In this document: positions 7,646 through 28,695 of the stretch, piece after piece
Numbering within the stretch: the first letter of the stretch is position 1
How the letters are laid out: every line of letters starts with the position of its first letter
Source: Candidatus Electronema aureum
Lineage (GTDB): Bacteria; Desulfobacterota; Desulfobulbia; Desulfobulbales; Desulfobulbaceae
Direction of reading: 5' to 3'
NCBI GenBank assembly: GCA_004284765.1
Contig: NQJD01000010.1
Coordinates: 1-32,000 of the forward strand
Length of the DNA stretch: 32,000 nucleotides
Notes under the pieces: model-generated
The model's database searches: none
Seen by the model: only the letters and a program-made list of their open reading frames with translations
Told to the model about the DNA's origin: nothing
Program-made: the position numbers and the translations under genes

Positions 7646-7649
7646 CCTG

Positions 7650-8726
7650 TCAATTCATCTTCAGCACCAGCACCTCCACCAGCCTGCTGGAATACCCGCT
7701 CCTGATCATCTTCACCAGATCAGCGAAGTTATTCACTGTGATATTCAGACTGCTGAGAGCAGAGCCGCTGAAGCCCGGCAGCACGTATGCGCCATTGGCG
7801 AGAACCTGCACCGCCGCGCCCGCCCTGCCGCCTTCCGTCATATCGAGCAAATTGAGCGACAAGCTGCCGGTGTGCAGATCAAGGATGGCCTGAATGCGCA
7901 CGGTCTCATCCGCGCTCAAGCTGCCGCCGGTGACGGTGACATACGGCGACGCGGCCTTGTCCGTCAGGATGCCGACATCCGGCGGATTGGGGTGGCCGAA
8001 ATTGGTCAGCGTCAATGGGGTGCGCAGCTTGCGGCGGTAGATGCCAGTGCGCAAAGTGCCGTTCGCGGTGTAATGGGTGGCGATGGAGAGGGTGTACTCG
8101 TTGTTCCACGGGTCGTTCTGCGCCGGGATGTCAGGCAGCAGCGTGACTTCCGTGTTGGCGATGCCGACAAAGCGCGTCTGCACGGTTCGCCCACTCCGTG
8201 TGCCCTCGATCACGCAGGCTTCGTCCGGCTTCTTTGGGTCAAAGAGCAGATTGCTGCCGGTGAGCTGCAAGGCCCCGCCGCTGTGCAAGATATCTTTCAG
8301 GCCCAGCACTGTGTCTTCCGCCGCCGTGATCAGCGGGGCCTTTTCGGTCATGGGCAGACGTTCAATCTGCACCGCCCGCTGCACGGTCTCGGTGCAGGCT
8401 TTGGACGCATGGACGCGCACATTGAGCATGTCCTCAACCGGCGGCAGCGGGTCGTCCGGCGACTCCAGCCGTGCGCTGAAGGAGAGGCCGAAGGTGAAGG
8501 CATCCGGCAGTACGGTCTGGTTGCCGTTGATCAGGTTTGCGCCAATCCGCTCCATCGCCGCCATGATGATGGTTTTGGCATCCTCTTGGGCGTAATTGGG
8601 GTGCATCTGCACCACCTCGGCGGCCAGCTCATCATAGCCGAGCGTGTCTTTAGGCACAAAACGGACGGAATACGACGGGGGCGTGGTCAGGGCATTGCCC
8701 TCGATCCGCACTTGCACAGTTGCCAT
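7650..8726 (-). CDS. HU-like DNA-binding domain protein with DUF4469-type Ig-like domain(s), copy A
   Basis: 358-aa ORF with RBS AAGGAGAAG upstream. The N-terminus MATVQVRIEGNALTTPPSYSVRFVPKDTLGYDELAAEVV..LINGNQTV..F.GLSFSARLESPDDPL follows the pattern of Bacteroidetes-type HU-HIG proteins (N-LT-P-Y-ARV, then L-G-V, then G-F). The middle part (LQLTGSNLLFDPKKPDEACVIEG..NEYTLSI) follows the DUF4469 pattern. It is a paralogue of 17818..18891. The family assignment is from memory of motif patterns, not a search. Confidence 0.7.
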   Translation of the reverse strand: MATVQVRIEGNALTTPPSYSVRFVPKDTLGYDELAAEVVQMHPNYAQEDAKTIIMAAMERIGANLINGNQTVLPDAFTFGLSFSARLESPDDPLPPVEDMLNVRVHASKACTETVQRAVQIERLPMTEKAPLITAAEDTVLGLKDILHSGGALQLTGSNLLFDPKKPDEACVIEGTRSGRTVQTRFVGIANTEVTLLPDIPAQNDPWNNEYTLSIATHYTANGTLRTGIYRRKLRTPLTLTNFGHPNPPDVGILTDKAASPYVTVTGGSLSADETVRIQAILDLHTGSLSLNLLDMTEGGRAGAAVQVLANGAYVLPGFSGSALSSLNITVNNFADLVKMIRSGYSSRLVEVLVLKMN

Positions 8727-8771: not shown

Positions 8772-8800
8772 AGCGTAAGACGGGCTGCGGCTTCTGTCAA
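8772..8800 (-). promoter_or_regulatory. Putative sigma70-type promoter of HU-like gene A
   Basis: On the minus strand, TTGACA (8800..8795), a 17-nt spacer, then TACGCT (8777..8772). The layout is equivalent to the promoter of copy B. Confidence 0.4.
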
Positions 8801-8836
8801 CAGAAAAGATAAGGAAAGCGGTCTGCTGGATGATGA

Positions 8837-8997
8837 CACCAGTGAGGAGGAAGTCTTCTCACTAGTGTGAAGGACGGCTGCACACCAGTGTCGAGACGCG
8901 GACATCACTGGTGTGTAGCGTGGCTCCTCACTGGTGAGGAGAGGGAGAGATAAGCAGTGAGGAGAGTGGCTGGACACTGGTGAGGAGAAGCGGCGGC
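8837..8997. repeat. Array A: 7 tandem units with exact 23-bp phasing and a near-palindromic CACYRGTG core
   Basis: Unit starts are 8837, 8860, 8883, 8906, 8929, 8952 and 8975. Units: CACCAGTGAGGAGGAAGTCTTCT / CACTAGTGTGAAGGACGGCTGCA / CACCAGTGTCGAGACGCGGACAT / CACTGGTGTGTAGCGTGGCTCCT / CACTGGTGAGGAGAGGGAGAGAT / AAGCAGTGAGGAGAGTGGCTGGA / CACTGGTGAGGAGAAGCGGCGGC. Confidence 0.85.
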
Positions 8998-9027: not shown

Positions 9028-9816
9028 TCAGGATTTTTCAGCGATGATCACGGCGGAGCGGATGTAGTTCTCAATGCCGCTGTCAGCCATCCAGTCCTTG
9101 ATGAAGGCCCGGCTGTCCTCCTTGATCTCCACCGAGACTGCGCTGAAGCCTGCCTGCTTCAGCATGGCCTCTATCTCGGCAACGGGCGCGGCCCCAGCAG
9201 CGCAGCAGGTGTAGGCTTCAGTGATTGCCCCCAGCTCCGGCGGCAGCGGGGCAACAGCCACCACATCGGAGATGGCCAATCTGCCGCCCGGACGCAGCAC
9301 CCGGCAGGTCTCGGCAAAGACCTGCGCCTTGTCCGGCGAGAGGTTGATGACGCAGTTGGAGATGATCACGTCCACGCTGCTGTCGGCCACCGGCAGATGC
9401 TCGATCTCGCCCAGCCTGAACTCGACATTGGCATAGCCGCCTTTCCGCGCGTTGTCACGGGCCTTGGCCAGCATCTCCGGGGTCATGTCCACGCCGATGA
9501 CCCGGCCTGCCGCGCCCACCTGCCGGGCGGCAAGGAAGCAGTCAAAGCCGCCGCCGCTGCCCAGATCGAGCACGGTCTCACCGGCTTGCAGCTCCGCTAT
9601 CGCCTGCGGATTGCCGCAGCCTAAGCCCATGTTGGCCCCATCCGGCACAGCGGCCATCTCCTCCGCCGCATAGCCGACGCTGGCCGAGGCTAACGGGTTG
9701 CCTAACGGCTGCGGAGCGCATTGAGAGGCACCGCAGCAGGAGCCGCCTGCAACCGCAATCCCACCGTATCTGGCCCGCACCTCAGCGCGGAGGGCATCCT
9801 TCACTTGATCAGACAT
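9028..9816 (-). CDS. arsM: Arsenite S-adenosylmethionine methyltransferase
   Basis: SAM-binding motif VLDLGSGGGFDCF, plus VDVIISNCVINL, RPGGRLAISD and N-terminal cysteines (GGSCCG). Start chosen at MSDQVKD (ATG 9816) because AAGGAG lies 5-10 nt upstream; the ORF-track start at 9873 would overlap the upstream gene. Confidence 0.85.
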   Translation of the reverse strand: MSDQVKDALRAEVRARYGGIAVAGGSCCGASQCAPQPLGNPLASASVGYAAEEMAAVPDGANMGLGCGNPQAIAELQAGETVLDLGSGGGFDCFLAARQVGAAGRVIGVDMTPEMLAKARDNARKGGYANVEFRLGEIEHLPVADSSVDVIISNCVINLSPDKAQVFAETCRVLRPGGRLAISDVVAVAPLPPELGAITEAYTCCAAGAAPVAEIEAMLKQAGFSAVSVEIKEDSRAFIKDWMADSGIENYIRSAVIIAEKS

Positions 9817-9829
9817 AACGCAGCTCCTT

Positions 9830-10513
9830 TTAGAAGAAATAGACAGCACAGTAATAGCCGCCGATGAGAACAAACAGCAGGCCGGTTATTCGCCGCGCCC
9901 AGATTTCAAAGGCAGCAATCCGGTTGAAGGCTTGGGCGACCTTGTTGGTGCCAAAGGCCAGCAGCAGGGCGAAGAGCAGCACCGGCAAGCCCGTCGCCAG
10001 CCCGTACACGCCGGGCAGCAGTATTCCTGACTGCTGCTGCACAGCCAGCGGCAGGAGCGAGCCGAAGAACAGGGCTGCTGAGGTCGGGCAGAAGGAGAGG
10101 GCGAAGACCATGCCCAGCAGCCCGGCCCCGCCGATGCCCAGAGAGTCCGCCTTGTTCTGCAAGGCCGCGCTCAGGCCGCTGGAGCCGACAGGCAAGGGAA
10201 TCAGCTCCAGCAGAATCAAGCCAACCACGATCAGCATCGGGCCAAGGGCCATGTTCATGTGCTTCTGGAGCACCTGCGACAGCGAGGGCGCGGAGAGCAG
10301 GCTGCCGACCAAGAGCATTCCTAAGAGCAGATAGGCCAGGGTGCGTCCGGCGGTGTAGAGCAGGCCCGCTTGCAAGACGCTGGCCGGTTTACCCACGCGG
10401 CGGCCCACATAAGATATCGCCGCGATGTTGGTGGTCAGCGGGCAGGGGCTGATGGAGGTGAGGATGCCGAGCCAGAAGGCCGAGGCCAAAGGCACGAGGA
10501 TGGACTCGCTCAT
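9830..10513 (-). CDS. CcdA/DsbD_2-like thiol-disulfide transfer membrane protein
   Basis: 227-aa polytopic membrane protein with LTSISPCPL in the first helix, typical of DsbD/CcdA transmembrane-domain proteins. Its ATG overlaps the upstream stop (ATGA at 10511..10515). Confidence 0.65.
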   Translation of the reverse strand: MSESILVPLASAFWLGILTSISPCPLTTNIAAISYVGRRVGKPASVLQAGLLYTAGRTLAYLLLGMLLVGSLLSAPSLSQVLQKHMNMALGPMLIVVGLILLELIPLPVGSSGLSAALQNKADSLGIGGAGLLGMVFALSFCPTSAALFFGSLLPLAVQQQSGILLPGVYGLATGLPVLLFALLLAFGTNKVAQAFNRIAAFEIWARRITGLLFVLIGGYYCAVYFF

Positions 10514-10995
10514 CAGCCTTTCCCGTTGAGCAGCAGGTTGATTTCATCGCGGAGGTATTGCGCAAAGGCCGCTTCATCATGGACAAGCTGCCAGACCTTA
10601 TCCAGCCGCCGCCACTTGGCCTCCTTGCCCTGCTTGATCTGGGAGACCACCACCGAGCGAGTGGCTAACTGATACTCTTCAACAAAGTGCTCGTTCTCGC
10701 TCTTGTCCACGTTGACCACCTGCACTTCCATCGAGCCGTCCTTGAGCTGTCCGGCAAACGACTCCTCCACGGTTTTCTTCGTCAGTGCCTCAATCTTCTT
10801 GCAGGTTGTGCAGCGCTGGTTGCCGTGGAAGTAATAGACCCGCGTCGTGCTCTGCTCAGTCTTCTGGGCCGCTGCGGGTGGCTGACTGCTGCCAGCAGCA
10901 CTCGTTTCCGCTGCTGACTCTGCGAAGCTGCCGCCCGCAGCAATGAATAAGGCCAGCAGGACGGCTGCAATGCTTTTGCTCTTTATCGTGCTCAT
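10513..10995 (-). CDS. Secreted thioredoxin-fold protein (ArsF-like family, tentative)
   Basis: 160 aa with N-terminal signal peptide MSTIKSKSIAAVLLALFIAAGGSFA and a C-x-x-C motif in YYFHGNQRCTTCKKIE. Located in the ars operon. Confidence 0.6.
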   Translation of the reverse strand: MSTIKSKSIAAVLLALFIAAGGSFAESAAETSAAGSSQPPAAAQKTEQSTTRVYYFHGNQRCTTCKKIEALTKKTVEESFAGQLKDGSMEVQVVNVDKSENEHFVEEYQLATRSVVVSQIKQGKEAKWRRLDKVWQLVHDEAAFAQYLRDEINLLLNGKG

Positions 10996-11008
10996 CGTGC
11001 CGCGCTCC

Positions 11009-11242
11009 TTATGCAGACAGCATCTTCTTGAGTTCCTCGACAGAAGGCACCATGCCGAGAAGTTTCACCTCACCATCCACAACCAAGGCAGGTGTCGTCA
11101 TCACACCAAACGATATGATCTGACTGATGTCCGTGATCTTCTCCAGCTCGAAATCAAGCTGAAGGGCTTTGGCGGCAGCTTCGGCGTGTTCCGTCAGCTT
11201 CTTGCACTTGGGGCAGCCAGTGCCCAGTATTTGGATTTTCAT
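11009..11242 (-). CDS. Small thioredoxin-family protein (redox-active disulfide protein 2 type)
   Basis: 77 aa, MKIQILGTGCPKCKKL...TPALVVDGEVK: a canonical CPxC glutaredoxin-like small protein often linked to arsenic permease genes. Confidence 0.8.
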   Translation of the reverse strand: MKIQILGTGCPKCKKLTEHAEAAAKALQLDFELEKITDISQIISFGVMTTPALVVDGEVKLLGMVPSVEELKKMLSA

Positions 11243-11285
11243 TGCATTACCCTTGTTATTTGTTTATCCGAACAGAGTACAGAAA

Positions 11286-11735
11286 TCACTGCGCCTTTCC
11301 AAGAGCGTTGATGAAATCCCTGGCAGTGTCGCCGCGAAGATTCTCTGCGAGTCCGACCAGTCCGTCGGTCAGGTATCTCGCCTCAAGACCTTTTGAGCGG
11401 AGGTACACCATAGCGATGATTGCGCGGTCTTTGTGCGGACATGCGGTAACAATCATCTTGCCCTTGTCAAGCTCTGCAAGCCTTTTCGGCAGCTCGTTCA
11501 AAGGGATGTTGATTGACGGCATGACCTTCCACGCTGCATATTCCTCTGCAAACCTGATGTCAATCAATTGCGCTTTCCCTTCCTTCAAGAGTTTGACAAG
11601 CTCTTTGCTGTCAACATTCATTTCCTCCTTTGCGGCATAATCAAAGGCGGCAATGTATTTCTCCAGCGGGGCATCGCTTGCGTATGCAGGCAGGCACATT
11701 GCCGCCAGCAGGAAGATGAGTGTCAGCTTTTTCAT
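11286..11735 (-). CDS. Secreted rhodanese-domain protein
   Basis: Start chosen at MKKLTLIFLLAAMCLPAYA (ATG 11735, RBS AAGGAGAA upstream). Carries LIDIRFAEEY and the active-site loop region VTACPHKDRA, as in rhodanese/ArsC-like sulfurtransferase domains. Confidence 0.7.
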   Translation of the reverse strand: MKKLTLIFLLAAMCLPAYASDAPLEKYIAAFDYAAKEEMNVDSKELVKLLKEGKAQLIDIRFAEEYAAWKVMPSINIPLNELPKRLAELDKGKMIVTACPHKDRAIIAMVYLRSKGLEARYLTDGLVGLAENLRGDTARDFINALGKAQ

Positions 11736-11811
11736 ACGGTTCTCCTTGTTGATGAACGCCCCCGCAGGACGGGGGATCGTTGATTGCGTCGAACAGCCCG
11801 CCTTGGTTGCG

Positions 11812-12339
11812 CTACATCTCCTCGAAATTGAACTGAGCGAGATATTCAGCCAGCATCTTCCGCTGGTCATCGCCCAAGGCAGGGCAGGCATCCGGCCCCA
11901 TTGCGCCTTGCACAGCCAGCGAAGCGAAAACGATGCAGGTTGCTTGGCCGCACTGCCCGCAGTTCGTTTTCGGCAGCAGCTTCAACACCGCCAGCGGCTG
12001 CGGCCTGCTGACCGCGCTGTATTTCGGCGTGATGCTGGCCCGCTGCTCCCACGCCTCGTTGATCTCCCGCTTCAGCCACTCAACGATCTTCACCGCTTCT
12101 TCAGCGTCCTTCAGGGCGTTGATGGATATCTTCCGCGAATGCACAGAAATCATGCGGCCATGCACTTTGAACATCACCGAAGGCGGCGATTGGACGAAGC
12201 ACGTCCCGCCCAGCACCGCGTTCAGATACGGAATGACCTCGCTGATGTCTTCCTCAAGATGCGCGTGGCAGTGCAATGACTGAAAACTGGCGTTGCACGT
12301 CGGCCTGACCATCTCTATCGTGTAGTTTTTCAGCAGCAT
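11812..12339 (-). CDS. Fe-S cluster-binding protein (C-terminal RnfB/CODH-type 4Fe-4S domain)
   Basis: 175 aa. The C-terminal LPKTNCGQCGQATCIVFA...CP motif is characteristic of the putative Fe-S cluster domain. Confidence 0.6.
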   Translation of the reverse strand: MLLKNYTIEMVRPTCNASFQSLHCHAHLEEDISEVIPYLNAVLGGTCFVQSPPSVMFKVHGRMISVHSRKISINALKDAEEAVKIVEWLKREINEAWEQRASITPKYSAVSRPQPLAVLKLLPKTNCGQCGQATCIVFASLAVQGAMGPDACPALGDDQRKMLAEYLAQFNFEEM

Positions 12340-12352
12340 TGTTTACCTGCCC

Positions 12353-13405
12353 TCAATTCCCCACGAACATCCGCTTCCGCAGCATGAACGCCGCATTGAC
12401 CAAGGCAATCATCACCGGCACTTCGATCAGCGGGCCGATGACTGCGGCAAAGGCCGCGCCTGAATTGATGCCGAACACGGCCACGGCCACCGCAATCGCC
12501 AGCTCAAAGTTGTTGCTGGCAGCAGTGAAGGCCAGCGTGACGGTCTGGCTGTAATTCGCCCCGGCCATGCGCCCCATGAAGAAGGAGACAAAGAACATGA
12601 TCAGGAAGTAGATCAGCAGCGGCACAGCAATCCGCACCACGTCCAAAGGCAGCGAGACAATAACATCACCCTTGAGCGAGAACATGACCACAATGGTGAA
12701 GAGCAGGGCAATCAGGGTGATCGGGCTGATACGCGGCACAAAGACGCTGTGATACCAGTCTTTGCCTTTGGCTTTGACCAAGAAGAAGCGGGTCAGGAAG
12801 CCTGCAAGAAAAGGGATGCCCAGATAGATGAACACGCTTTTGGCGATCTCGCCGATGGTGATGTCAACGATGCTGCCTGTCAGCCCGAACCATGCTGGCA
12901 GAACGGTGATGAAGAGATAGGCGTACAGGCTGTAGAACAGAACTTGGAAGATACTGTTGAAGGCCACCAGACCGGCGGCGTACTCAGTATCGCCTTTTGC
13001 AAGATCATTCCAGACGATGACCATCGCGATGCAGCGGGCCAGACCGATAAGAATCAGACCGGTCATGTATTCGGGATAGCCACGCAGGAAGATGATAGCC
13101 AGCAGGAACATCAGCACCGGGCCGATCAGCCAGTTCTGAATCAGGGACAAGCCAAGAATTTTCCAGTTGCGGAACACATCGCCCAGCTCTTCGTAGCGCA
13201 CCTTGGCCAAGGGCGGGTACATCATGAGGATTAGGCCGAGGGCTATGGGGATATTGGTTGTGCCGACTGAGACCGCACTGTTTACGCTGCTGACAGCGCG
13301 GGGGAAGAGAAAGCCTATGCCAACCCCGATGCCCATTGCCAGAAATATCCACAAGGTCAGGTAGTGGTCAAGAAAGGACAGCTCTTTCGGTGATTCCTGC
13401 GTCAT
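12353..13405 (-). CDS. acr3: ACR3-family arsenite efflux transporter
   Basis: 350-aa polytopic membrane protein. [20 protein letters not shown] at the N-terminus and overall colinearity with Acr3/ArsB(ACR3) proteins; located directly downstream of arsR. Confidence 0.85.
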
Positions 13406-13907: not shown

Positions 13908-16900
13908 TTAAACAGACCTCCCGCACCACTCTCTCGCATTCTGGAACATCCTCAGCCACGGCGAGACCTCCAGCCCCTGCATCTCCCTTGGCAGCCAATG
14001 GCACTGCCACGGCAGGAAGGCCCGCTCCGGGTGCGGCATCAGGGCTAAGTGGCGGCCATCAGGCGAGCACAGCCCGGCGAAGCCGTCCGGCGAGCTGTTG
14101 GGGTTGAAGGGATAGATTTCCGTGGCCGCGCCGCTGTCGTCGGCATAGACCAGCGGCACCAGCCGCTGCCCGATCACCTCGGCCCGCACCGCCGCGTCCG
14201 GGAAGTGCAGCAGGCCTTCGCCGTGCGCCACATGAATGCCGAAGACCAGGCCGCTCATGCCGCGCAGCATCATGGTCGGGCTGTCGGTCACGCGCACGGT
14301 CGTCCAGCGCGACTCGAATCTGCCCGATCTGTTGTGGATGAAGCGCGGCTGCGCCTCTGCGTCTAATCCGCGCCAAGGCACCCAGCCGAGCAGACCAAAG
14401 AGCTGGCAGCCGTTGCAGATGCCGAGGGTGAAGGTGTCGGGCCGATTAAGAAACTCATCGAACATGGCCCGCAGCCGCTCGTTGAAGAGGATGGTCGCGG
14501 CCCAGCCTTTGGCCGACTCCGGCACGTCGGCGTAGGAGAAGCCACCCACAGCCGCGATGCCCCGGAAGCCGTCCAGTGTCACCCGCCCGGCCAGCAGGTC
14601 GGTCATGGTGATATCCCACGGCTCGAAGCCAGCGGCATAAAAGGCGGAACTCATCTCGCGGTCGGAGTTGGAACCCTCATCGCGAAGTATGGCGACCTTG
14701 GGCTTGCTTGCCGCAGTCAGCAGAGCCTTGAGCGTAGGCTGCGGGGTGAACGGCAGATGATAGGCCGGAGCGATGCGGTCATAGATGCTCTGCCGTTCCG
14801 CTTCCGCACAGGCAGGGTTCACTTGCAGCCGTTCGAGTTGATAGCTGGTCTCCTCCCATTCTTGACGGAGGACGCGCATGTCCTCATCCAGCACCAGCTC
14901 GCCGTTGCAGCGGATGCGGATGTACTTGTCTGCCAGCGAAGTTCCCAACAGCATACAAGGCACCTCAGCGACGGCCAATATCTGCCTGATCTCCTCAAGC
15001 TGCTCCTGCCTGCATTCCAGCACCAAGCCCAGCTCCTCAGCAAAGAGAGTGGGAATTGCTTCGCCCTCAATCGCAAGCTCCAGCCCGCAGTTGCCCGCAA
15101 AGGCCATCTCCAGCAGAGTGACGATCAGGCCGCCGTCGCTGCAGTCGTGGCCGGATAAGATCAGGTCTTGCGCGATCAGCTCCTGCACCGCTGCGAATGC
15201 CTGCCGGAGCAGCACTGGGTCGTCCATGTCCGGGCTTTCGTCGCCAAGGCTGCCCAGTGTTTGCGCCAGAGCTGAACCGCCCAGCCGAGTCTTGCCCGGA
15301 GCTAAGTCTATGAGCAGCAGAACCGACCCCGGCTCTTTAATATCCGCTGTGACGACCTTGCGGATGTCGCTCATGGCCGCGTATGCGGATATAACCAGCT
15401 CGCGGGGCGACTTCACCGTCTCGCTGCCCACCTTGGTGGCCATTGAGAGCGAGTCCTTGCCGCCATCCACGGCCATTCCAGTGGCGATCATCGCGTCACG
15501 CATGGCCCGCGCCGCGTCGTTGAGGGCCGCGCCTTCGCCGGGCAGTTTGGGCGCCCACATCCAGTTGGCCGAGCACTTCACCTGCTCCGGGTCGTCAATC
15601 TTGGCCCAGACAAGGTTCGTCCATGCCTCGCCGACGGCCATGCGCGCCCCTGCCGCTGGGTTGAGCAGCATCTTGATCGGCTGCTCGCCGATAGCTGTGG
15701 CAATGCCTGTCAGACCAAAGTGCGACTGCGCCACCACGGCCACATCGCCCACCGTGAGCTGAAGCGGGCCGCAGCACTGCTGCTGCGCAATCAGGCCGGT
15801 GACGGAGCGGTCAACCTTGTTGGTGAGGAAGCGTTTGGAGCCGACCGAGACGAGGCGGAGGACGTTGCGGAGGTGATCACGGACGGATGGGCAATGCCGT
15901 AGGGGCAATTCATGAATTGCCCCTACGGGTACACGCCTGTCCTCAAAGGTCTTCTGTGGGATATGCCCCAGCACCTCCTTCAGCTCCACGTCCACGGGCG
16001 TGCTGCCGTCCTGCTCGTCCGAGACGACAAAGCGCAGATCGCCGGTGACTTCGCCCAGCACCTCGCAGGCCACCTTCTCGCGCTCACAGATAGAGAGGAA
16101 CTGCCCGATATTCTCCGGCTTGATCAGCAGGCCGTTGCGCTCCTGATACTCGGCCACGTAGATTTCCAGCACCGACATGGTGGGGTCGCCGACGCGAATC
16201 TTGCGGATCTCGATGCGCCCGCCGGAGTGCTCGACCAGCTCCTTGAGCACGTTGGCCGGGCCGCCCGCGCCTTGGTCGTGGATGACCTCGATCAGCGTCC
16301 TGCCGCCCATCTCGTTGCAAGCGCGGATGACCCGGTTCATCTTCTGCTCCATCTCCGCGTCGCCGCGCTGCACCGCGTTGAAGTCCAGCTCCGCCGCGTT
16401 CTCGCCTTGGAGCATAGAGGAAGCCGCGCCGCCGCCGAAGCCCACCCGGTACGCAGGCCCGCCGACCTGCACGATCAGCATCCCCTTGGCCGCCTGCTCC
16501 TTCTTAATATGGCGGTCGTCAATCTGGCCGATGCCGCCGGTGAACATGATCGGCTTGAGCCAGGCCCAGCGTTCGCCGCCCTCCACGCGCAGGTCAAAGG
16601 AGCGGGTGAAGCCCTGAATCAGCGGCTCGCCGAACTTGTTGCCGTAGTCGGACGCGCCGTTGCTGGCTTCGATCTCGATGGTCAGGGCCGAGGCGAGGTT
16701 GGAGGGGCAAGGATGGTGCTGCTCCCAAGGCAGCTCGTAGCCGGGAATGTGCAGATTGCCCACGCAGTAGCCTGCCGTGCCTGCCATGACAAAGCCGCCC
16801 TTGCCTGTGCCTTGCACGTCACGGATGCGCCCGCCAGTGCCGGTCTCTGCGCCGGGGAAGGGTGCCACGCCAGTGGGGAAGTTGTGCGTCTCGGCAGTCA

Positions 16901-17756
16901 GCAAAGGATGAAAGCGGACATCCACCGCCCGCAGCGGCGAGGGCTGACCGGGCTGCTCCGGCTGCAAGGTGCTGATGTCATGCCCGGCGACCACGCTGGA
17001 GTTGTCGCCAAAGGCCACCAGCGAGCCTTTCGGGTTGGCCTTCAGGGTCGCCTTGACCACATCGAAGAGCGTGCCGTCCTGCTCCACGCCGTCTACCACC
17101 TGCTTGCCCCGGAAATAGCCGTGCCGCGAGTGCTCGGAGTTGGCGTTGTTGAGATCCATGATCTCGACAATGGTCGGGTTGCGCTGGTGCTTGCCGACAA
17201 AGTAGTCGTAATAGAACTGGCGGTCGCGCTCGTCCATCGAGATGCCGGGCAGATTGAGCAGCGCGTCCGGCCCCTTGCCGAGCAGGTCAACCTCGTACAC
17301 CGGTTCTGGCTGGATGCCGGTCTCGAAGGTGGTGAGCGGGTGCGAGTAGTGGCACTCAGTCATCCGGTCGTGGTGTGCGGCGATGAAGGCGGCCATGTCC
17401 TCGCCCTCTGGCACCACGTACACGCGGGAACGCTCGGCGCGGGTGACGCAGTCCAAGCCAGTCGCCCGGCAGATGGAAACGAGGTTGGACGACCAAGCGG
17501 TGGCGAAGTTCAGGCGCGGGCCAACCTCAACCACGCGCCCGCCGGTCAGCACCGGTTCAAGCGAGACGGTCTCGGCAATGAAGCCGTCGGCCAGCAGAAG
17601 GAGCAGGCGGCGCAGCTCCTCGTCAGTCAGCGGGCGGGCAGATTCGATGTTGAAGCAGTAAGCGCGGGCCGTGTCAAGGCGGCGGTGCAGGCGGGTGATG
17701 GGCATGATATGGTTCCGGGTTTTTATAAATGAAAGGGCCGTCCGCTCCCCGTGCAT
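13908..17756 (-). CDS. purL: Phosphoribosylformylglycinamidine synthase, single-chain large PurL (synthetase plus glutaminase domains)
   Basis: 1282-aa ORF. It carries AIR-synthase-like repeats (DVQGTGKGG, GGAASS, DQGAGG) and a C-terminal class-I glutamine amidotransferase (LGICNGCQL, HPER). An alternative start MPITRLH at 17705 is possible and would place the 17735..17772 hairpin in the leader. Confidence 0.95.
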   Translation of the reverse strand: MHGERTALSFIKTRNHIMPITRLHRRLDTARAYCFNIESARPLTDEELRRLLLLLADGFIAETVSLEPVLTGGRVVEVGPRLNFATAWSSNLVSICRATGLDCVTRAERSRVYVVPEGEDMAAFIAAHHDRMTECHYSHPLTTFETGIQPEPVYEVDLLGKGPDALLNLPGISMDERDRQFYYDYFVGKHQRNPTIVEIMDLNNANSEHSRHGYFRGKQVVDGVEQDGTLFDVVKATLKANPKGSLVAFGDNSSVVAGHDISTLQPEQPGQPSPLRAVDVRFHPLLTAETHNFPTGVAPFPGAETGTGGRIRDVQGTGKGGFVMAGTAGYCVGNLHIPGYELPWEQHHPCPSNLASALTIEIEASNGASDYGNKFGEPLIQGFTRSFDLRVEGGERWAWLKPIMFTGGIGQIDDRHIKKEQAAKGMLIVQVGGPAYRVGFGGGAASSMLQGENAAELDFNAVQRGDAEMEQKMNRVIRACNEMGGRTLIEVIHDQGAGGPANVLKELVEHSGGRIEIRKIRVGDPTMSVLEIYVAEYQERNGLLIKPENIGQFLSICEREKVACEVLGEVTGDLRFVVSDEQDGSTPVDVELKEVLGHIPQKTFEDRRVPVGAIHELPLRHCPSVRDHLRNVLRLVSVGSKRFLTNKVDRSVTGLIAQQQCCGPLQLTVGDVAVVAQSHFGLTGIATAIGEQPIKMLLNPAAGARMAVGEAWTNLVWAKIDDPEQVKCSANWMWAPKLPGEGAALNDAARAMRDAMIATGMAVDGGKDSLSMATKVGSETVKSPRELVISAYAAMSDIRKVVTADIKEPGSVLLLIDLAPGKTRLGGSALAQTLGSLGDESPDMDDPVLLRQAFAAVQELIAQDLILSGHDCSDGGLIVTLLEMAFAGNCGLELAIEGEAIPTLFAEELGLVLECRQEQLEEIRQILAVAEVPCMLLGTSLADKYIRIRCNGELVLDEDMRVLRQEWEETSYQLERLQVNPACAEAERQSIYDRIAPAYHLPFTPQPTLKALLTAASKPKVAILRDEGSNSDREMSSAFYAAGFEPWDITMTDLLAGRVTLDGFRGIAAVGGFSYADVPESAKGWAATILFNERLRAMFDEFLNRPDTFTLGICNGCQLFGLLGWVPWRGLDAEAQPRFIHNRSGRFESRWTTVRVTDSPTMMLRGMSGLVFGIHVAHGEGLLHFPDAAVRAEVIGQRLVPLVYADDSGAATEIYPFNPNSSPDGFAGLCSPDGRHLALMPHPERAFLPWQCHWLPREMQGLEVSPWLRMFQNAREWCGRSV
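15899..15926. repeat. Perfect 28-bp GTAG-type palindrome (REP-like) inside full-length purL
   Basis: GTAGGGGCAATTCA|TGAATTGCCCCTAC is an exact 14+14 palindrome, translated in frame as ..VGAIHELPL... It occupies the same linker position as the REP doublet in the truncated copy. Confidence 0.75.
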
Positions 17757-17772
17757 AAAGGACAGACGGCCC
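17735..17772 (-). terminator. Hairpin between HU-like gene B and purL (possible terminator or attenuator)
   Basis: GGGCCGTC (17735..17742) pairs with GACGGCCC (17765..17772). On the minus strand it is followed by CTTTCATTTAT. The loop is long (22 nt), so this is weak. Confidence 0.3.
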
Positions 17773-17817
17773 GCATTCTACCCTATCAGCCCGGAAAATT
17801 CTATGGCAAGAGCAGGG

Positions 17818-18891
17818 CTACGCCGTCTCAACCTTCAGGACATCCACCACCCGCCCGCCGTAGTTGTTGCGGATCATCTCTTTCAGTCCTGCGTACTCAT
17901 TCACCCGGATGCTCAGGCTGGAGACCGCCGAGCCGCTGAATCCTTGCAACGTCACTGCCCCGTTCGCGGTCACGCTCACTGCTGCGCCCACCGCTCCGCC
18001 CTCTTTCATATCTAACAGGCTGAAGAGCAGCGCGTCGGTGCGCGCATCAAAGACCGCCTGAATGCGCAGGGTCGTATCTGCCGCCACGCTGCCGCTGGTG
18101 ACGCTGACATGCGCGCTGGCCTCCTTGCCCGTGAGAATGCCAACCTCTGGCGGATTCGGGTGGCCCATCTTGGTCAAGGTCAGCGGCGAGCGCAGCATCC
18201 GTCCATACGTTCCAGTGCGCAGCGTCCCGTGTTCGCTGTAGCGCGTGCTGACGGAGACCGTGTATTCGTTGTTCCACGGATGCGGCGGCGCAGGCAGGTC
18301 CGGCATGACGATGATCTCGCTGTCCTCAATCTTGCCGAAGCGGGTCTGCGTGATCTTGCCGCCTGCCGTGCCTTCGATCACGCAGCCGCTCCCCTGCTTG
18401 CGGTCGAAATGCAAATCAGCACCAGTAAGCTGGAGCAGGCCCGCCGGATTGAGCACATCCTTCAGTTCCAGCACCGTGTCCTGTACTGTGCTGATGAGCG
18501 GTAGCTTCTTCTCCTCCGGCAGGCGTTCAGTTTTGGCATCTCGGCGGATGGCTTCAATAAAGGGCTGGGAGGCATGGATGCGGACTTGCAGGCATTCGTC
18601 TAACGGCGGCAACGGGTCGTCCGGGCTGTTGAGTTTGCCGGTGAAGGAAAGGGAGTAGGTCACGGCGTTCTCCTCAGTCACCTGCTCGCCATTGAGCAGG
18701 CTTTCGGCGATGAGCTGGTTGTGGAGGTCAATGAAGGTGCGGAACTCCTCCTCGCTGTAGTTGGGCAAAGCCTTGGCCATCCGGGCGGCCATGTCCGCCT
18801 TACCAAGCACGTTGCGGGCTATGAAGCGGGGCCGCCAGGACGGCGGGGTGGTGAGGGCGTTGACTTCCGGTCTCCATTGAATCGTTGCCAT
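17818..18891 (-). CDS. HU-like DNA-binding domain protein with DUF4469-type Ig-like domain(s), copy B
   Basis: 357-aa ORF with RBS AAGGAGAAA upstream. It is colinear with copy A over the full length (MATIQWRPEVNALTTPPSW.., LNSPDDPLPP, LQLTGADLHFD, PWNNEYTVSV, GHPNPPEVGILT), with roughly half the residues identical by manual alignment. It lies directly upstream of purL on the same strand. Confidence 0.7.
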   Translation of the reverse strand: MATIQWRPEVNALTTPPSWRPRFIARNVLGKADMAARMAKALPNYSEEEFRTFIDLHNQLIAESLLNGEQVTEENAVTYSLSFTGKLNSPDDPLPPLDECLQVRIHASQPFIEAIRRDAKTERLPEEKKLPLISTVQDTVLELKDVLNPAGLLQLTGADLHFDRKQGSGCVIEGTAGGKITQTRFGKIEDSEIIVMPDLPAPPHPWNNEYTVSVSTRYSEHGTLRTGTYGRMLRSPLTLTKMGHPNPPEVGILTGKEASAHVSVTSGSVAADTTLRIQAVFDARTDALLFSLLDMKEGGAVGAAVSVTANGAVTLQGFSGSAVSSLSIRVNEYAGLKEMIRNNYGGRVVDVLKVETA

Positions 18892-18941
18892 GACGTTTCT
18901 CCTTGCTTAGATGGTTGAGATAACCGCGCAAATGATATCCC

Positions 18942-18970
18942 ATCCTAAGAAGCTGCCGCTGTTTTGTCAA
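18942..18970 (-). promoter_or_regulatory. Putative sigma70-type promoter of HU-like gene B (possibly also driving purL)
   Basis: On the minus strand, TTGACA (18970..18965), a 17-nt spacer, then TAGGAT (18947..18942). Array B begins 14 bp upstream of the -35. Confidence 0.45.
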
Positions 18971-18983
18971 GACAAAGAACAGC

Positions 18984-19121
18984 GTGGAGGCATAGGAAAA
19001 AACAGTATGCCTCGATATCGTAGAACGCTATGCCTGCATACCGTCCAGCGTCATGCCTGCATGAAGGAAAACAGTATGCCTCGATACCGTTTTGCGCTAT
19101 GGAGGCATGGCGCGGAAGAGC
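18984..19121. repeat. Array B: 6 tandem units with exact 23-bp phasing and an ATGC-NN-GCAT-type core
   Basis: Unit starts are 18984, 19007, 19030, 19053, 19076 and 19099. Units: GTGGAGGCATAGGAAAAAACAGT / ATGCCTCGATATCGTAGAACGCT / ATGCCTGCATACCGTCCAGCGTC / ATGCCTGCATGAAGGAAAACAGT / ATGCCTCGATACCGTTTTGCGCT / ATGGAGGCATGGCGCGGAAGAGC. Units 1 and 6 carry the core in flipped orientation. Units 1/4 and 2/5 also share their tails, giving a 69-bp super-period. Confidence 0.85.
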
Positions 19122-19162
19122 GACGGGCAAAGAGCGTGCTGCGCTGGCCGCTCATTTTTTCT

Positions 19163-19190
19163 TTGACAGTGGCTGGTTAAGAGGTATTCT
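19163..19190 (+). promoter_or_regulatory. Possible sigma70-type promoter of the FG-GAP gene
   Basis: TTGACA (19163..19168), a 16-nt spacer, then TATTCT (19185..19190), about 60 nt upstream of ATG 19254. Confidence 0.3.
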
Positions 19191-19253
19191 GAGCGGCGTG
19201 CGCTGCGCGGCATTCCGCTGGCAGTGCCTGAAAACATCACAAGGAGAAGCACT

Positions 19254-20438
19254 ATGAGAAGAGACACATCATGGCGGATGCTGCTTGCGGCATTCTTTCT
19301 GCTCATGCTGACTGGCGGCACGGCGCAGGCGGCTATTGACCCCGCCAAGGTGCAGAAGCTGCTGGCCAGTGACGGGGCTGGTTTCAACAGGTTCGGCATC
19401 AGCGTGGCTGTGTCCGGGGACACGGCGGTTATCGGGATAAACCGAAGTATCAACGACGACAAGGTCGGCTCGGCGTATGTCTTTGTCCGTGCAGCGGACG
19501 GCTCTTGGAGCCAGCAGGCCAAGCTCACCGCCGCTGACGGAGTGTTTCGCGACCAGTTCGGCTCCAGCGTGGCTGTGTCCGGGGACACCGCAGTCATCGG
19601 GGCTGCTAATTCCGGCTCTGTCTATGTCTTTGTTCGGGCATCGGACGGCTCTTGGAGCCAGCAGGCCAAGCTCACCGCCGCTAGCACGAGCGTGGCTGTG
19701 GATGGGGACACGGCAGTCATCGGGGCTGCTGCTGCCTATGTCTTTGTCCGTGCAGCGGACGGCACGTGGAGCCAGCAGGCCAAGCTCACCGCCGCTGATG
19801 GCGACAGGTTCGGCTCCAGCAGCGTGGCTATGTCCGGGGACACGGCGGTCATCGGGGCTTCAGGAGATGACGACAAGGGCGAGAATTCCGGCTCGGCATA
19901 CGTGTTTATCCGGGCAGCGGACGGCTCTTGGAGCCAGCAGGCCAAGCTCATTGCCGCTGACGGGGGTGATAACGACTATTTCGGCAATAGCGTGGCAGTG
20001 TCCGGGGACACGGCGGTCATCGGGGCCTATGGAGATGACGACAAGGGCAGCAGTTCCGGCTCGGCATACGTGTTTGTCCGGGCTGCGGACGGCACTTGGC
20101 AACAGCATAATAAGCTCACTGCCGCTGACGGGGCTGCTGACGACAACTTCGGCTGGAGCGTTGCTCTGTCCGGGGACACGGCGGTCATCGGGGCTAGGTT
20201 CGATGACGACAAGGGCGACTGGTCTGGCTCGGCATACGTCTTTGTCCGATGGGCAGCAAACTGCACTTGGAGCCAGCAAGCGAAGCTCACTGCCGCTGAC
20301 GGGGCTGCTAGCGACCACTTCGGCTGGAGCGTTGCTCTGTCCGGGGAAACAGCGGTCATCGGGGCAATTGGCGATAATGCCAAAGGCCATCTTTCCGGCT
20401 CGGCCTATGTCTATGGCAGCACTGCCGTCAAGCCTTAG
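19254..20438 (+). CDS. Secreted seven-bladed FG-GAP/integrin-alpha-type beta-propeller repeat protein
   Basis: Start chosen at MRRDTSWRMLLAAFFLLMLTGGTAQA (signal peptide; RBS AAGGAGAAG upstream). There are seven repeats of FG.SVA.SGDTAVIGA...GSAYVF.RAADGSWSQQAKLTAADG. The repeats are also conspicuous at the nucleotide level. Confidence 0.85.
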   Translation: MRRDTSWRMLLAAFFLLMLTGGTAQAAIDPAKVQKLLASDGAGFNRFGISVAVSGDTAVIGINRSINDDKVGSAYVFVRAADGSWSQQAKLTAADGVFRDQFGSSVAVSGDTAVIGAANSGSVYVFVRASDGSWSQQAKLTAASTSVAVDGDTAVIGAAAAYVFVRAADGTWSQQAKLTAADGDRFGSSSVAMSGDTAVIGASGDDDKGENSGSAYVFIRAADGSWSQQAKLIAADGGDNDYFGNSVAVSGDTAVIGAYGDDDKGSSSGSAYVFVRAADGTWQQHNKLTAADGAADDNFGWSVALSGDTAVIGARFDDDKGDWSGSAYVFVRWAANCTWSQQAKLTAADGAASDHFGWSVALSGETAVIGAIGDNAKGHLSGSAYVYGSTAVKP

Positions 20439-27045: not shown

Positions 27046-27315
27046 TTTCCTTTTGGTAGTGTCTTGGCCACTGAGCCAGCGGAAGGGATTGTCATAGATT
27101 ATGGCAGAAAGATCGCCGATGGTAGCACAGAGGAAGTACGGTAAAATCAGGCGGTGATCAGGGTATATTGGGTGGCGGATTGACAAAATAGTTTCGTCAA
27201 ATTACTTGACAAAAAGCACTATAAAATATAGTGTGTAATTTGTAGTCATGCTTATAAGCATAATTAATGTTTATGAGAAAAGATTATTAATCTTTAAGAG
27301 GAATTTTTGATTATT

Positions 27316-27879
27316 ATGAAAGCATTTAAAGTGGTCTTCGCCTCCGCAGCACTGTTATTTATTGCCAGTCAGGTTTCTGCCAACGTAACTTTTAATGCAC
27401 CTATGGAGTTTGCGGGAACAGGCTGCAAACCCGGTTCATATTCTTTCTCAGGCGAAGGTACCGACACTCTCAGCGTTCTATTCAGTGCGTATGATGCTGG
27501 CAATCCAGCCAGTAAAGCTGCCAGCACTATGGGACGCACCGCCTGTAGTTTTGTCGTACCCGTCAACGTGCCGCCAGGTTTTCAAGTATCCACAATGACT
27601 TCGGACTGGCGAGGATATGCTGAAGGTAAGACCGAACTGTTCCGCGAATATTTCTTTGCCGGTCAGCGTGGACCGAAAAAAGTCACAAAACCCAATGGTA
27701 ACTACACAGAACGTGATACTCTGATGCATGCTACTTGGAGTGGTTGCGGCGGAGGAACTGTACCTATGCGAATTAACAGTTCTGTAAGAGCAGTGGGCAA
27801 ACCAAGTTATATTGCAGTAGATACGGTTGACCTTCAAAACAAGGTTGAATTTCATCTGCTGTGGAAAAAATGTCAATAA
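27316..27879 (+). CDS. Secreted DUF4360-like protein, paralogue 1
   Basis: Signal peptide MKAFKVVFASAALLFIASQVSA. Motifs GTGCKPGS, FSAYDA, ACSF..P.GFQVS, DWRGYAEG and REYFFAG, plus 4 conserved Cys shared by all three paralogues. The pattern recalls Pfam DUF4360 (tentative). The ORF track offers TTG 27307 as an alternative start. Confidence 0.6.
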   Translation: MKAFKVVFASAALLFIASQVSANVTFNAPMEFAGTGCKPGSYSFSGEGTDTLSVLFSAYDAGNPASKAASTMGRTACSFVVPVNVPPGFQVSTMTSDWRGYAEGKTELFREYFFAGQRGPKKVTKPNGNYTERDTLMHATWSGCGGGTVPMRINSSVRAVGKPSYIAVDTVDLQNKVEFHLLWKKCQ

Positions 27880-27978
27880 CGTTAACACGGATAGCTATTT
27901 CCTCATGAATTTACTCCAAAGGAAATGATGAAATACCGCAATGCGGTAAAAAAGTAGCTTACCTGTTCATAAGCAGAT

Positions 27979-28012
27979 GAAGCCCATGCTATTTAGCATG
28001 GGCTTCTTTTTT
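27979..28012 (+). terminator. Rho-independent terminator after DUF4360-like paralogue 1
   Basis: GAAGCCCATGCT-attt-AGCATGGGCTTC forms a 12-bp stem and is followed by TTTTTT. Confidence 0.8.
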
Positions 28013-28026
28013 AGAGGATGATAACC

Positions 28027-28599
28027 ATGAAGAAAAATATTTTTGCTGCGGCTTTAACTATTGCTGCCAGTTTTGCGTTCTCTGCTGAAGCCTCACCGTA
28101 CGCTCCAGTTTATTTTAAATCCGTGCAATATGCAGGAACAGGCTGTAAACCAAGTTCAGCTGTTGTTGTAGGAAAAGGCTTTTCAATCATGACCATTGCA
28201 TTGGATAAATATGATGCTGCCAATCCTCGTTCTAAAGCTCGTAGTAAAATGGAACGAGCCTCTTGCAACTTTACAGTGCCTATCCATGCAACACGAGGTT
28301 ATCAGGTCTCCGTCATGACCATAACTTGGCGAGGATACACCAAAGGTTCAACCGAGCTGCGGCGCGAATATTTCATTGCCGATCAACGTGGAGCTGCAAA
28401 GACTTCACATCATAGTGGTCGCTTTATAAAACAGGACAATTTGCCGAAAAGTTATTTCAGTCAATGCGGTCAAAATGTTACCCTGCGGATCAACAGTTCA
28501 GTACGCGCAACTGATCCTAACAGTTATATCGCAGTTGGAAAGACTGAACAGTCCGGTAAGATGACTTTTCAGCTGAAATGGCGAAAATGTCATTCATGA
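28027..28599 (+). CDS. Secreted DUF4360-like protein, paralogue 2
   Basis: Signal peptide MKKNIFAAALTIAASFAFSAEA. It has the same motif skeleton (GTGCKPSS, KYDAANP, SCNFTVP, TWRGY, REYFIA, INSSVRA) and is the most divergent of the three. Confidence 0.6.
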   Translation: MKKNIFAAALTIAASFAFSAEASPYAPVYFKSVQYAGTGCKPSSAVVVGKGFSIMTIALDKYDAANPRSKARSKMERASCNFTVPIHATRGYQVSVMTITWRGYTKGSTELRREYFIADQRGAAKTSHHSGRFIKQDNLPKSYFSQCGQNVTLRINSSVRATDPNSYIAVGKTEQSGKMTFQLKWRKCHS

Positions 28600-28695
28600 G
28601 ATCGAATAAACAACTATGTTGTATTATTCTGAATAGGTAAAATTCTTGCTGATATAACCGGCAATTTTTTATCTTCAGGAAAGGAAGAAGTATTT

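Follow-up and report, generated by a model that had tools for sequence, protein, structure and literature searches.

What is a short, strictly phased array of palindromes doing immediately upstream of a gene for an HU-like protein? The question is raised by a locus of the cable bacterium Candidatus Electronema aureum, which lies in the first 32,000 nucleotides of contig NQJD01000010.1 (GenBank assembly GCA_004284765.1); this whole stretch is referred to here as the window, and coordinates are those of the window unless a locus is named. A sequence-only reading had described six units at exact 23-bp intervals, followed by a promoter and the gene, and had taken array and protein for a cognate pair of iterated sites and DNA binder, such as a centromere, an iteron cluster or an operator array. 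Our analysis argues for the last of these. With moderate confidence, we regard the array as the private operator array of the protein encoded beside it, which would autoregulate its own promoter and which belongs to a clade that has expanded in cable bacteria. The elements of this module (module B) are as follows.

17818 to 18891, minus strand: gene B, an HU-HIG(Ig) gene for a protein of 357 aa (protein B), identical to CDV28_11014 of Ca. Electronema aureum.
18913 to 18923, minus strand: a conserved 5'-leader motif, TTATCTCAACC, ~25 nt before the ATG of gene B.
18942 to 18970, minus strand: the predicted sigma-70-type promoter of gene B (consensus scan), with TTGACA at 18970 to 18965, a 17-bp spacer and TAGGAT at 18947 to 18942.
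18980 to 19112, no strand: array B, six 18-bp palindromic predicted operators (lag-23 identity and motif search).
19163 to 19190, plus strand: a divergent promoter-like site, TTGACA-16-TATTCT (consensus scan), 51 bp past the distal operator of array B.

The units of array B start at 18984, 19007, 19030, 19053, 19076 and 19099, in exact steps of 23 bp as had been claimed, and 13 bp separate the end of the array from the -35 of the promoter of the 357-aa gene. Arrays were mapped by autocorrelation together with a custom palindromic expectation-maximization search. Between 18984 and 19121, the identity at lag 23 is 0.487, compared with 0.249±0.041 in 2000 dinucleotide-preserving shuffles (z 5.8; shuffle maximum, 0.39). 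A lag-23 scan of all 32 kb gave two peaks only, at 8831 (0.58) and 18975 (0.55), on a background of 0.257±0.046 and with a third-best place of 0.41. Lags 46 and 69 are as strong as lag 23 in array B (identity, 0.54 each), so the 69-bp super-period noted earlier is real. The core sequences quoted in the sequence-only reading are also present, but its division of each unit into a 10-bp core and 13 variable bp did not stand. The palindromic motif search instead returned an 18-bp palindrome (8-2-8) plus a 5-bp spacer, with the consensus CGgTATGC-ag-GCATAcCG; part of the supposed variable tail thus belongs to the site, and the "flipped" units (the two outer ones) are the same palindrome with its non-symmetric center inverted. 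The operators are centered at 18988.5, 19011.5, 19034.5, 19057.5, 19080.5 and 19103.5, and a scan of the window for cognate sites found no further occurrence of the motif. A CRISPR array was rejected as an explanation: the spacers are 5 bp long, the units are ~50% alike and the window contains no cas genes.

The second peak of the scan belongs to a parallel module, module A.

7650 to 8726, minus strand: gene A, an HU-HIG(Ig) gene for a protein of 358 aa, 54% identical to protein B.
8772 to 8800, minus strand: the predicted promoter of gene A, with TTGACA at 8800 to 8795, a 17-bp spacer and TACGCT at 8777 to 8772.
8832 to 8987, no strand: array A, seven 18-bp palindromic predicted operators at 23-bp spacing (lag-23 z 7.5; motif search).

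The operators of array A (consensus CTcctCAC-ta-GTGaggAG) have centers running from 8840.5 to 8978.5, and their motif likewise has no further occurrence in the window. No close orthologue of gene A turned up among the genomes sampled (best, 59.5%). Module A is a genuine paralogous module whose motif is unrelated to that of array B. The parallel copy with an unrelated core that had been described earlier is thus confirmed, with a seven-unit array, a TTGACA promoter and a paralogue; its "purL," however, is a truncated duplicate. At its lowest score setting, Tandem Repeats Finder reported array A in part (period 23) and did not report array B, because the units of the latter are only ~50% alike overall.

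Protein B has the HU fold that had been predicted for it. Its AlphaFold model (predicted local distance difference test score, 92.9) comprises an N-terminal beta-hairpin and an HU/IHF-type domain (residues ~1-125), the Ig-like (immunoglobulin-like) DUF4469 domain (~126-240) and a second beta-sandwich (~241-357). Strands 4-11 and 18-24 precede helix 31-41, and strand 121-123 follows helix 109-118; the packing of these elements is presumed. Foldseek placed 4FMR (BVU_2165 of Bacteroides vulgatus, described as a homodimer) at the top of its matches (E 9e-12) and also matched IHF and HU chains to the N-domain (target template-modeling [TM] score, 0.67-0.83; probability, 1.0). By sequence profile, 4FMR is the sole PDB match (E 2.6e-4, residues 25-223). 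Because 4FMR is both the best structural match and the only PDB profile match, and because the modeled fold is of the HU/IHF type, we assign protein B to the HU-HIG clade of the HU/IHF superfamily, in which an HU/IHF-fold domain bearing an additional N-terminal hairpin is fused at its C-terminal side to Ig-like domains, as in 4FMR. This clade was defined by Burroughs, Kaur, Zhang and Aravind (2017; PMC5499826), who described rapid diversification and lineage-specific expansion within it and proposed, for the expansion in Bacteroidetes, a sensor or decoy role in conflict with mobile elements. Protein B scores 22.3 bits against the Pfam HU-DNA_bdg model, below the gathering cut-off of 30, and protein A reaches the Pfam threshold for DUF4469 with a weak match to HU-DNA_bdg. 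At E<=0.01, PF14848 (HU-DNA_bdg) matches 63 of 67 family members and PF18291 (HU-HIG) matches 8; DUF4469 (PF14734) is matched by 24 of the 67. NCBIfam and PADLOC gave no match for protein B, PHROGs gave a weak match only (E 0.014), and a tblastn search of plasmids and phages with the protein found nothing. The HU-HIG/DUF4469 family is large (698 representatives; 22 copies in one Bacteroides genome). Our literature search found no paper on the function of DUF4469 or on arrays of this kind.

It had been suggested that homologues be searched for upstream 23-bp repeats whose core covaries with the protein, and the outcome is in favor of the pairing of binder and sites. A survey of one genome per species returned 66 loci, 57 of them with enough upstream sequence. 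All 66 are from cable bacteria (Electronema, Electrothrix and related Desulfobulbaceae bins) except one, from a bin labelled Fermentibacteraceae, and each cable-bacterial genome carries 4-10 HU-HIG paralogues at 42-80% identity. In the 400 bp upstream of the gene, the best autocorrelation lag was 23 in 40 of the 57 loci and 46 in 8 more (48/57 together). About 50 of the 57 have three to nine palindromes phased at 23 bp, typically five or six, upstream of a near-invariant TTGACA promoter, and an independent palindromic-motif search recovered 18-bp sites at 23-bp spacing among the related loci. The arms of the palindrome are constant within one array and different among loci (e.g., GAGCAAGcgCTTGCTC, CTTGGTGtaCACCAAG, CTCCATGCtaGCATGGAG and TTCCACTATAGTGGAA). 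In individual sites, 5.63 of the 9 mirror pairs are complementary, compared with 2.25 by chance, and this palindromy would fit a homodimeric binder. The arrays are also closely tied to their genes. Across 493 kb of related loci, 45 segments have a lag-23 identity of at least 0.55, and 39 of these lie at -420 to -60 from an HU-HIG start codon. Within 4 kb on either side of each gene, 205 cognate sites fall inside arrays and 3 outside, so that extra cognate sites in these flanks occur at background rate only.

The promoter itself hardly varies. TTGACA is perfect in 53 of the 57 loci, with a 17-bp spacer, a TAnnnT -10, a position ~87 bp before the ATG and an A/T-rich stretch ahead of it; in the window, the TTGACA-17-TAGGAT at 18970 to 18942 bears out the sigma70-like promoter proposed earlier. 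The array keeps a fixed register to this promoter. In ~36 of 41 well-defined arrays, the operator centers stand at a distance of 0-5 (modulo 23) from the first base of the -35, a count that allows for four or five arrays in which the search locked onto the symmetry center between sites. In most loci, the proximal operator is centered 25-26 bp upstream of the -35, which would place it at about -61 from a transcription start predicted by way of the predicted -10. The 5' leader is also partly conserved: (T/C)ATCTCAA(A/C)C, often followed by AGTTGAA, stands ~25 nt 5' of the start codons of many paralogues and in the same place in many loci (e.g., L001, L003, L007, L017, L018, L021, L022, L025, L046 and L064).

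The sequence of the site changes with the protein. At least 22 half-site classes can be told apart among the related arrays. Each genome's paralogues are of different classes (mean motif distance, 0.47), and in a third Ca. E. aureum paralogue TTGACA/TAGGAT is preceded by yet another motif, GCATACGC-n-GCGTATGC. Orthologues, on the other hand, retain their motif down to 49-62% protein identity, whereas protein pairs that are 60-78% identical can carry unrelated motifs. At matched overall identity (0.69 versus 0.65), pairs that have changed motif show extra substitutions in residues 20-60, 73-81 and 171-186. Motif distance is best correlated with distance in the N-domain (Mantel r 0.22; 1/2000 permutations) and least with distance in the C-domain (r 0.10; 119/2000).

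Unlike the anatomy of the arrays, their conservation, their register and their paralogue-specific sequences, all of which are observed, three steps in our explanation are ones that we infer: that the adjacent protein is the binder, that it binds cooperatively and that binding has a regulatory output. The first is drawn from linkage and covariation. A homodimer of each paralogue would read one 18-bp palindrome, that is, two 8-bp half-sites one helical turn apart. Since three to nine such sites (typically five or six) are arranged head to tail every 23 bp, neighboring dimers would nearly touch across gaps of 5 bp, with a rotation of ~68 degrees at each step. Gaps and steps of this size would be expected to yield a nucleoprotein filament that assembles cooperatively and makes roughly one helical turn just upstream of the sigma-70 promoter of the gene itself; one turn would take ~5.3 sites, near the usual five or six units. 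Adjacent dimers would interact, probably through their Ig-like domains, to form this filament, which would set transcription of the gene itself and, at loci with a second array or a divergent promoter, that of a neighboring gene as well. The direction of the effect can be argued either way. The -61 geometry and the A/T-rich gap would suit an activator of the class I type, by analogy; a perfect -35 would be just as natural in a strong promoter that its own product keeps in check.

Several observations weigh against this explanation. Protein B is acidic (isoelectric point [pI], 5.7 overall and 5.4 for the N-domain), and the stretch equivalent to the tip of the HU beta-arm, SPDDPLPPLDE, is short, acidic and nearly invariant, which makes the canonical HU clasp an unlikely DNA reader. 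HU-HIG proteins have been predicted not to be sequence-specific transcription factors, and the Ig domain of 4FMR is reported to fill the DNA-binding clasp, a structural reason to doubt that the Ig-fused form binds DNA (PMC5499826). The correlation between protein and motif is modest and is confounded by shared descent. A few loci (L027, L028 and L040) are without an upstream array. The window's own arrays depart from the family register: arrays A and B stand at 17-18, compared with 0-5 in the family (norm, 2-3), or ~8 bp closer to the -35, their proximal centers lying 40 bp (array A) and 18 bp (array B) upstream of it; the leaders of the two genes are also shorter (-79 and -74, compared with ~-87 in relatives). 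Finally, arrays of this kind are absent from the four DUF4469 genes sampled in Bacteroides, so the arrays are not a property of the whole Pfam family. Long phased arrays are thus, in the genomes compared, a feature of the cable-bacterial expansion.

The idea that arrays are a general property of DUF4469 proteins was accordingly rejected, on the four Bacteroides loci and on distant three-domain relatives, which have two palindromes or none. The surroundings of these relatives, which are ~29% identical, resemble those of phages or mobile elements (Phage_rep_O, DNA polymerase exonuclease, VapE, IstB). One of them, L070, has GAATGCCTGCATTC twice at 2951 to 2988, 24 bp apart, and shares the ATGCCTGCAT core with array B; in another, L068, two palindromes stand at about -122 to -85 from the gene.

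Taken with the published structural argument, the acidic protein and its acidic arm imply that any DNA-reading surface must be non-canonical, and the variable helices 1-2 are the best candidate. Classical HU and IHF are basic proteins of ~90-100 aa with long Arg/Lys-rich arms and an intercalating proline. A classical HU/IHF nucleoid protein was rejected for protein B, at 357 aa, with a pI of 5.7 and an acidic arm. One speculative extension, which we think unlikely to be right, is that the cable-bacterial HU-HIG(Ig) proteins form a naturally diversified set of mutually orthogonal sequence-specific binders in which helices 1-2 and adjacent strands, not the arms, read the 8-bp half-sites, and that their one-turn filaments act as cooperative, possibly bistable, self-sustaining switches or as chromosomal address marks. 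If so, it would overturn the published view of HU-HIG proteins as not sequence specific, and with at least 22 protein/operator pairs already at hand it would make the code of protein-DNA recognition readable. Even short of this, the arrays give an orphan family with a solved structure its first testable handle, namely, a defined, multicopy 18-bp site for each paralogue with built-in non-cognate controls. Confirmed binding would amount to a new DNA-reading mode for the HU fold; the family would supply synthetic biology with at least 22 orthogonal regulator/operator pairs and would bring to light a layer of regulation, or of something like chromatin, that is specific to cable bacteria. To our knowledge, these multicellular bacteria cannot be obtained in pure culture. 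For any cable-bacterial genome, lag-23 autocorrelation suffices to map the full set of arrays and, through them, the candidate regulons.

Candidate targets of this kind already exist, since 6 of the 45 lag-23 segments precede genes other than those for HU-HIG proteins. These, together with a second array at L032, are listed with the coordinates of their loci.

L059, 52 to 208: off-gene array before serA.
L033, 58 to 238: off-gene array before a gene for a secreted protein.
L042, 1804 to 2123: off-gene array of 13 units before a gene for a secreted protein.
L040, 7222 to 7308: off-gene array before an LRR-Roc (leucine-rich repeat-Roc) GTPase gene.
L027, 1362 to 1514: off-gene array before small genes.
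L028, 1049 to 1227: off-gene array before small genes.
L032, 4641 to 4727: second array, of four units, just past the HU-HIG stop codon and before kdpF-kdpA.

In L032, the second array repeats the motif of the array that belongs to the HU-HIG gene itself. The proteins of L040 and L032 are orthologues (77% identity), and the L040 array has this motif too, at a different location. The off-gene arrays are candidate regulon targets or relics of rearrangement, and arrays of the same format at other promoters are the pattern expected of a trans-acting regulator with a small regulon. In the window, the divergent site at 19163 to 19190, which points into an FG-GAP repeat gene (19254 to 20438), is a possible second target of array B; its register to the array, judged from the coordinates, is not typical of the family. 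The product of this divergently transcribed gene, a secreted protein, has FG-GAP_2 repeats encoded by a 168-bp tandem repeat at 19743 to 20365 (plus strand; 3.7 copies, 81% matches).

An alternative account accepts that the HU-HIG protein binds its array and supposes that the purpose is not gene regulation. The complex itself would be functional, as a chromosomal landmark or anchor or as a sensor or decoy against mobile elements, and linkage to the promoter would only ensure action in cis. We consider this unlikely, although it has more to recommend it than the accounts that follow. The rapid diversification and lineage-specific expansion of the family, with its 4-10 paralogues per genome, would be in keeping with it, as would stand-alone modules without a conserved partner, the phage-like contexts of distant relatives and the near confinement of cognate sites to the arrays (205 versus 3). 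Some modules, moreover, adjoin defense or toxin-antitoxin genes: Avs2 in the window, HigBA and DUF4160/DUF2442 in L076, PIN neighbors in 4 loci, and an NB-ARC/TPR STAND NTPase just upstream of the array and on the same strand in up to 14 (L010, L011, L013, L014, L015, L019, L022, L024, L055, L064 and others). The last association may be simply inherited, because several of these loci are orthologous and share the TTCCACTATAGTGGAA motif. The strict -35 register, the near-invariant promoter and the A/T-rich gap favor an interaction with RNA polymerase instead, and same-format arrays occur before ordinary genes (kdpFA and serA). PADLOC has no model for the protein, most neighbors of related loci are housekeeping genes and we found no enrichment of defense islands around these loci.

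A less probable view is that the HU-HIG protein is not the reader at all and that the arrays are bound by another factor or act by DNA shape alone, through phased curvature or cruciform extrusion. The acidity of the protein and of its canonical arm and the published case against DNA binding by the Ig-fused form, already raised as objections to an operator array read by the adjacent protein, would here be expected, and the spacers are often A/T-rich. HU-family proteins prefer distorted or cruciform DNA, which also speaks for a shape-based role. This view leaves unexplained, however, why each array has one 8-bp half-site that is kept across its units and across orthologues and differs among paralogues. 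At least 22 specificities would require at least 22 other readers, yet no other gene co-occurs with the arrays. The 143 neighbors of related loci match 178 Pfam families, among which only TPR/NB-ARC, PIN and receiver domains recur, and none of these neighbors is conserved as an alternative binder or partner.

Less probable again are neutral tandem repeats, generated by slippage or unequal crossing-over and tolerated upstream of promoters, or hairpin insulators or terminators against read-through. Unit number does vary among orthologues (4, 6, 8 and 9 in the CTCCATGC class), blocks of units have been duplicated, to judge from super-periods of 46 or 69 bp, and the upstream gene is on the same strand in about half of the loci. 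Neither kind of origin would lead one to expect confinement to the HU-HIG family (39 of 45 segments) or convergence on a 23-bp period, an 8-2-8 palindrome and one -35 register across at least 22 unrelated sequences. As to an RNA hairpin, Rfam returned nothing for 17500 to 19500 except two chance-level miRNA matches (E 0.4-1), and no U-tracts follow the units.

That the array is a centromere or the iteron cluster of an origin, with the protein as a ParR/ParB-like or Rep-like partner, is very improbable: iterons are indeed spaced at ~22-23 bp, and the ParR and omega operators, iterated upstream of their own promoters, double as centromeres, but here there is no ParA/ParM-type NTPase or Rep gene nearby (in the window or among the 143 neighbors), no plasmid or phage homologue was found, several to ten modules per chromosome are scattered among housekeeping genes, the sites are palindromic and not directional, the flanks are ~60% GC with no DnaA boxes or AT-rich unwinding region, and the fold is HU-like rather than ribbon-helix-helix or ParB.

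Of the three options first offered for the locus, then, the operator array is favored over centromere and iteron on the features of the sites and their genes, and it has well-known counterparts. Plasmid autoregulators with iterated operators include ParR/parC of R1 (10 11-bp repeats), omega of pSM19035 (7-bp heptads in either orientation) and ParG/parH. Like the module described here, these are self-contained pairs of a small dimeric binder and repeated sites at its own promoter, in which repeat number and orientation vary and binding is cooperative and filament-like. They differ in being ribbon-helix-helix proteins with a partner NTPase; here the fold is that of HU, there is no NTPase, and the modules are chromosomal and multicopy, with one 18-bp palindrome per 23 bp and with the entire array on the upstream side of the -35. 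Iterons and their Rep proteins (RK2, F, P1, pSC101 and R6K) are alike in having sites of 17-22 bp at ~22-23-bp spacing beside the gene of the binder. Iterons, however, are directional and form part of origins that also contain DnaA boxes and AT-rich DNA, and Rep is a winged-helix protein; the module has none of these features.

Two further comparisons concern fold and geometry. IHF is an HU-fold dimer with sequence preference and an architectural role upstream of promoters, and its chains match the N-domain of protein B (TM score, ~0.7). It is, however, a basic heterodimer of 2 10-kDa chains with long basic arms, which bends DNA by ~160 degrees at single, asymmetric sites, whereas the proteins considered here have a short acidic arm, symmetric tandem sites and a specificity that differs with the paralogue. 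The position of the proximal operator center (about -61 from the predicted start in ~36 of 41 loci) recalls the class I geometry of CRP (-61.5), with an A/T-rich segment where the C-terminal domain of the alpha subunit of RNA polymerase would sit; unlike a CRP class I promoter, the -35 here is already consensus, and the arrays of the window are offset by 8 bp.

Within the HU-HIG clade itself (PF18291/PF14848 with DUF4469, PF14734; 4FMR), lineage-specific expansion, fast divergence and the lack of conserved operon partners are shared traits. The clade was described in Bacteroidetes, and the proteins studied here are from Desulfobulbaceae (cable bacteria); they have an extra C-terminal beta-sandwich (~355 aa compared with ~265 aa), and the cable-bacterial paralogues are tied to phased palindromic arrays, of which none has been described for the clade. 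The iterated-operator autoregulator is thus already known as a principle, and what our results suggest as new is its carrier, an HU-HIG family without known function, in contradiction to the published prediction.

The sequence-only reading had further included purL in the module, and this part of its proposal we do not retain. The relevant features are the following.

5094 to 7628, minus strand: truncated purL copy with an intact 844-aa open reading frame (ORF), which matches residues 448-1282 of full purL at 87% (DNA) and 90% (protein) identity.
13908 to 17756, minus strand: full-length purL (FGAM [formylglycinamidine ribonucleotide] synthase), an ORF given for context only, with a likely start at ATG 17707.
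17725 to 17772, minus strand: terminator-like hairpin, GGGCCGUCUGUCCCC...GGGGAGCGGACGGCCC and then UUUCAUUUAU, between the gene B stop codon and the likely purL start.

The first 17 codons of the purL ORF have a translation that looks non-PurL. The G+C-rich hairpin (15 bp; -31.4 kcal/mol; z -3.25), in the stretch 17725 to 17790, takes up part of the 112 bp that separate the HU-HIG stop codon from the probable purL ATG, its sequence is kept in the orthologous locus L001, and a weak TTGCCA-18-TAGGGT lies just upstream of it. It could be the terminator of the HU-HIG gene or a leader/attenuator of purL. Downstream genes vary from locus to locus and are convergent in 30 of 66; purL is downstream only in the window and in L001. 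Given this variability and a hairpin with a U-tract before purL, we rejected purL as an operon partner. Its cotranscription with gene B appears doubtful, and the module is reduced to array, promoter and gene. The truncated copy does not restore the connection. The duplication pairs 5094 to 7647 with 13916 to 16433, the 3' two-thirds of the gene, and homology ends at 7647, with 3 bp to go to the gene A stop codon. The duplicate is a scar of rearrangement or horizontal acquisition and provides no evidence that purL belongs to the system. No conserved element that might mark a mobile cassette was found past the stop codons of related genes, beyond a G-rich tendency.

The one indel-rich spot separating the two purL copies (around residues 611-625) is a hairpin, TAGGGGC...GCCCCTA, resembling repetitive extragenic palindromic (REP) elements. 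It lies in frame inside purL both in the window (15900 to 15925) and in L001 (6969 to 6994). The same hairpin is found in L004, L009, L010, L013, L026, L037, L038 and L061, and in cable-bacterial loci it often stands just upstream of arrays.

Next to the truncated purL copy, 672 to 5051 (plus strand) encodes a 1459-aa protein without a Pfam match that PADLOC identifies as Avs2, an antiviral STAND NTPase (E 0; 1840 bits); the gene lies in a stretch of ~46% G+C, compared with ~60% nearby. The two modules are separated by an arsenic/redox-type island (9028 to 13405, minus strand) with genes for an SBF/ACR3-like permease, a rhodanese, a glutaredoxin-like protein, DsbD_2 and an S-adenosylmethionine methyltransferase. 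Farther along the window, 27307 to 29295 (plus strand) holds three tandem DUF4360 paralogues at 42-43% G+C.

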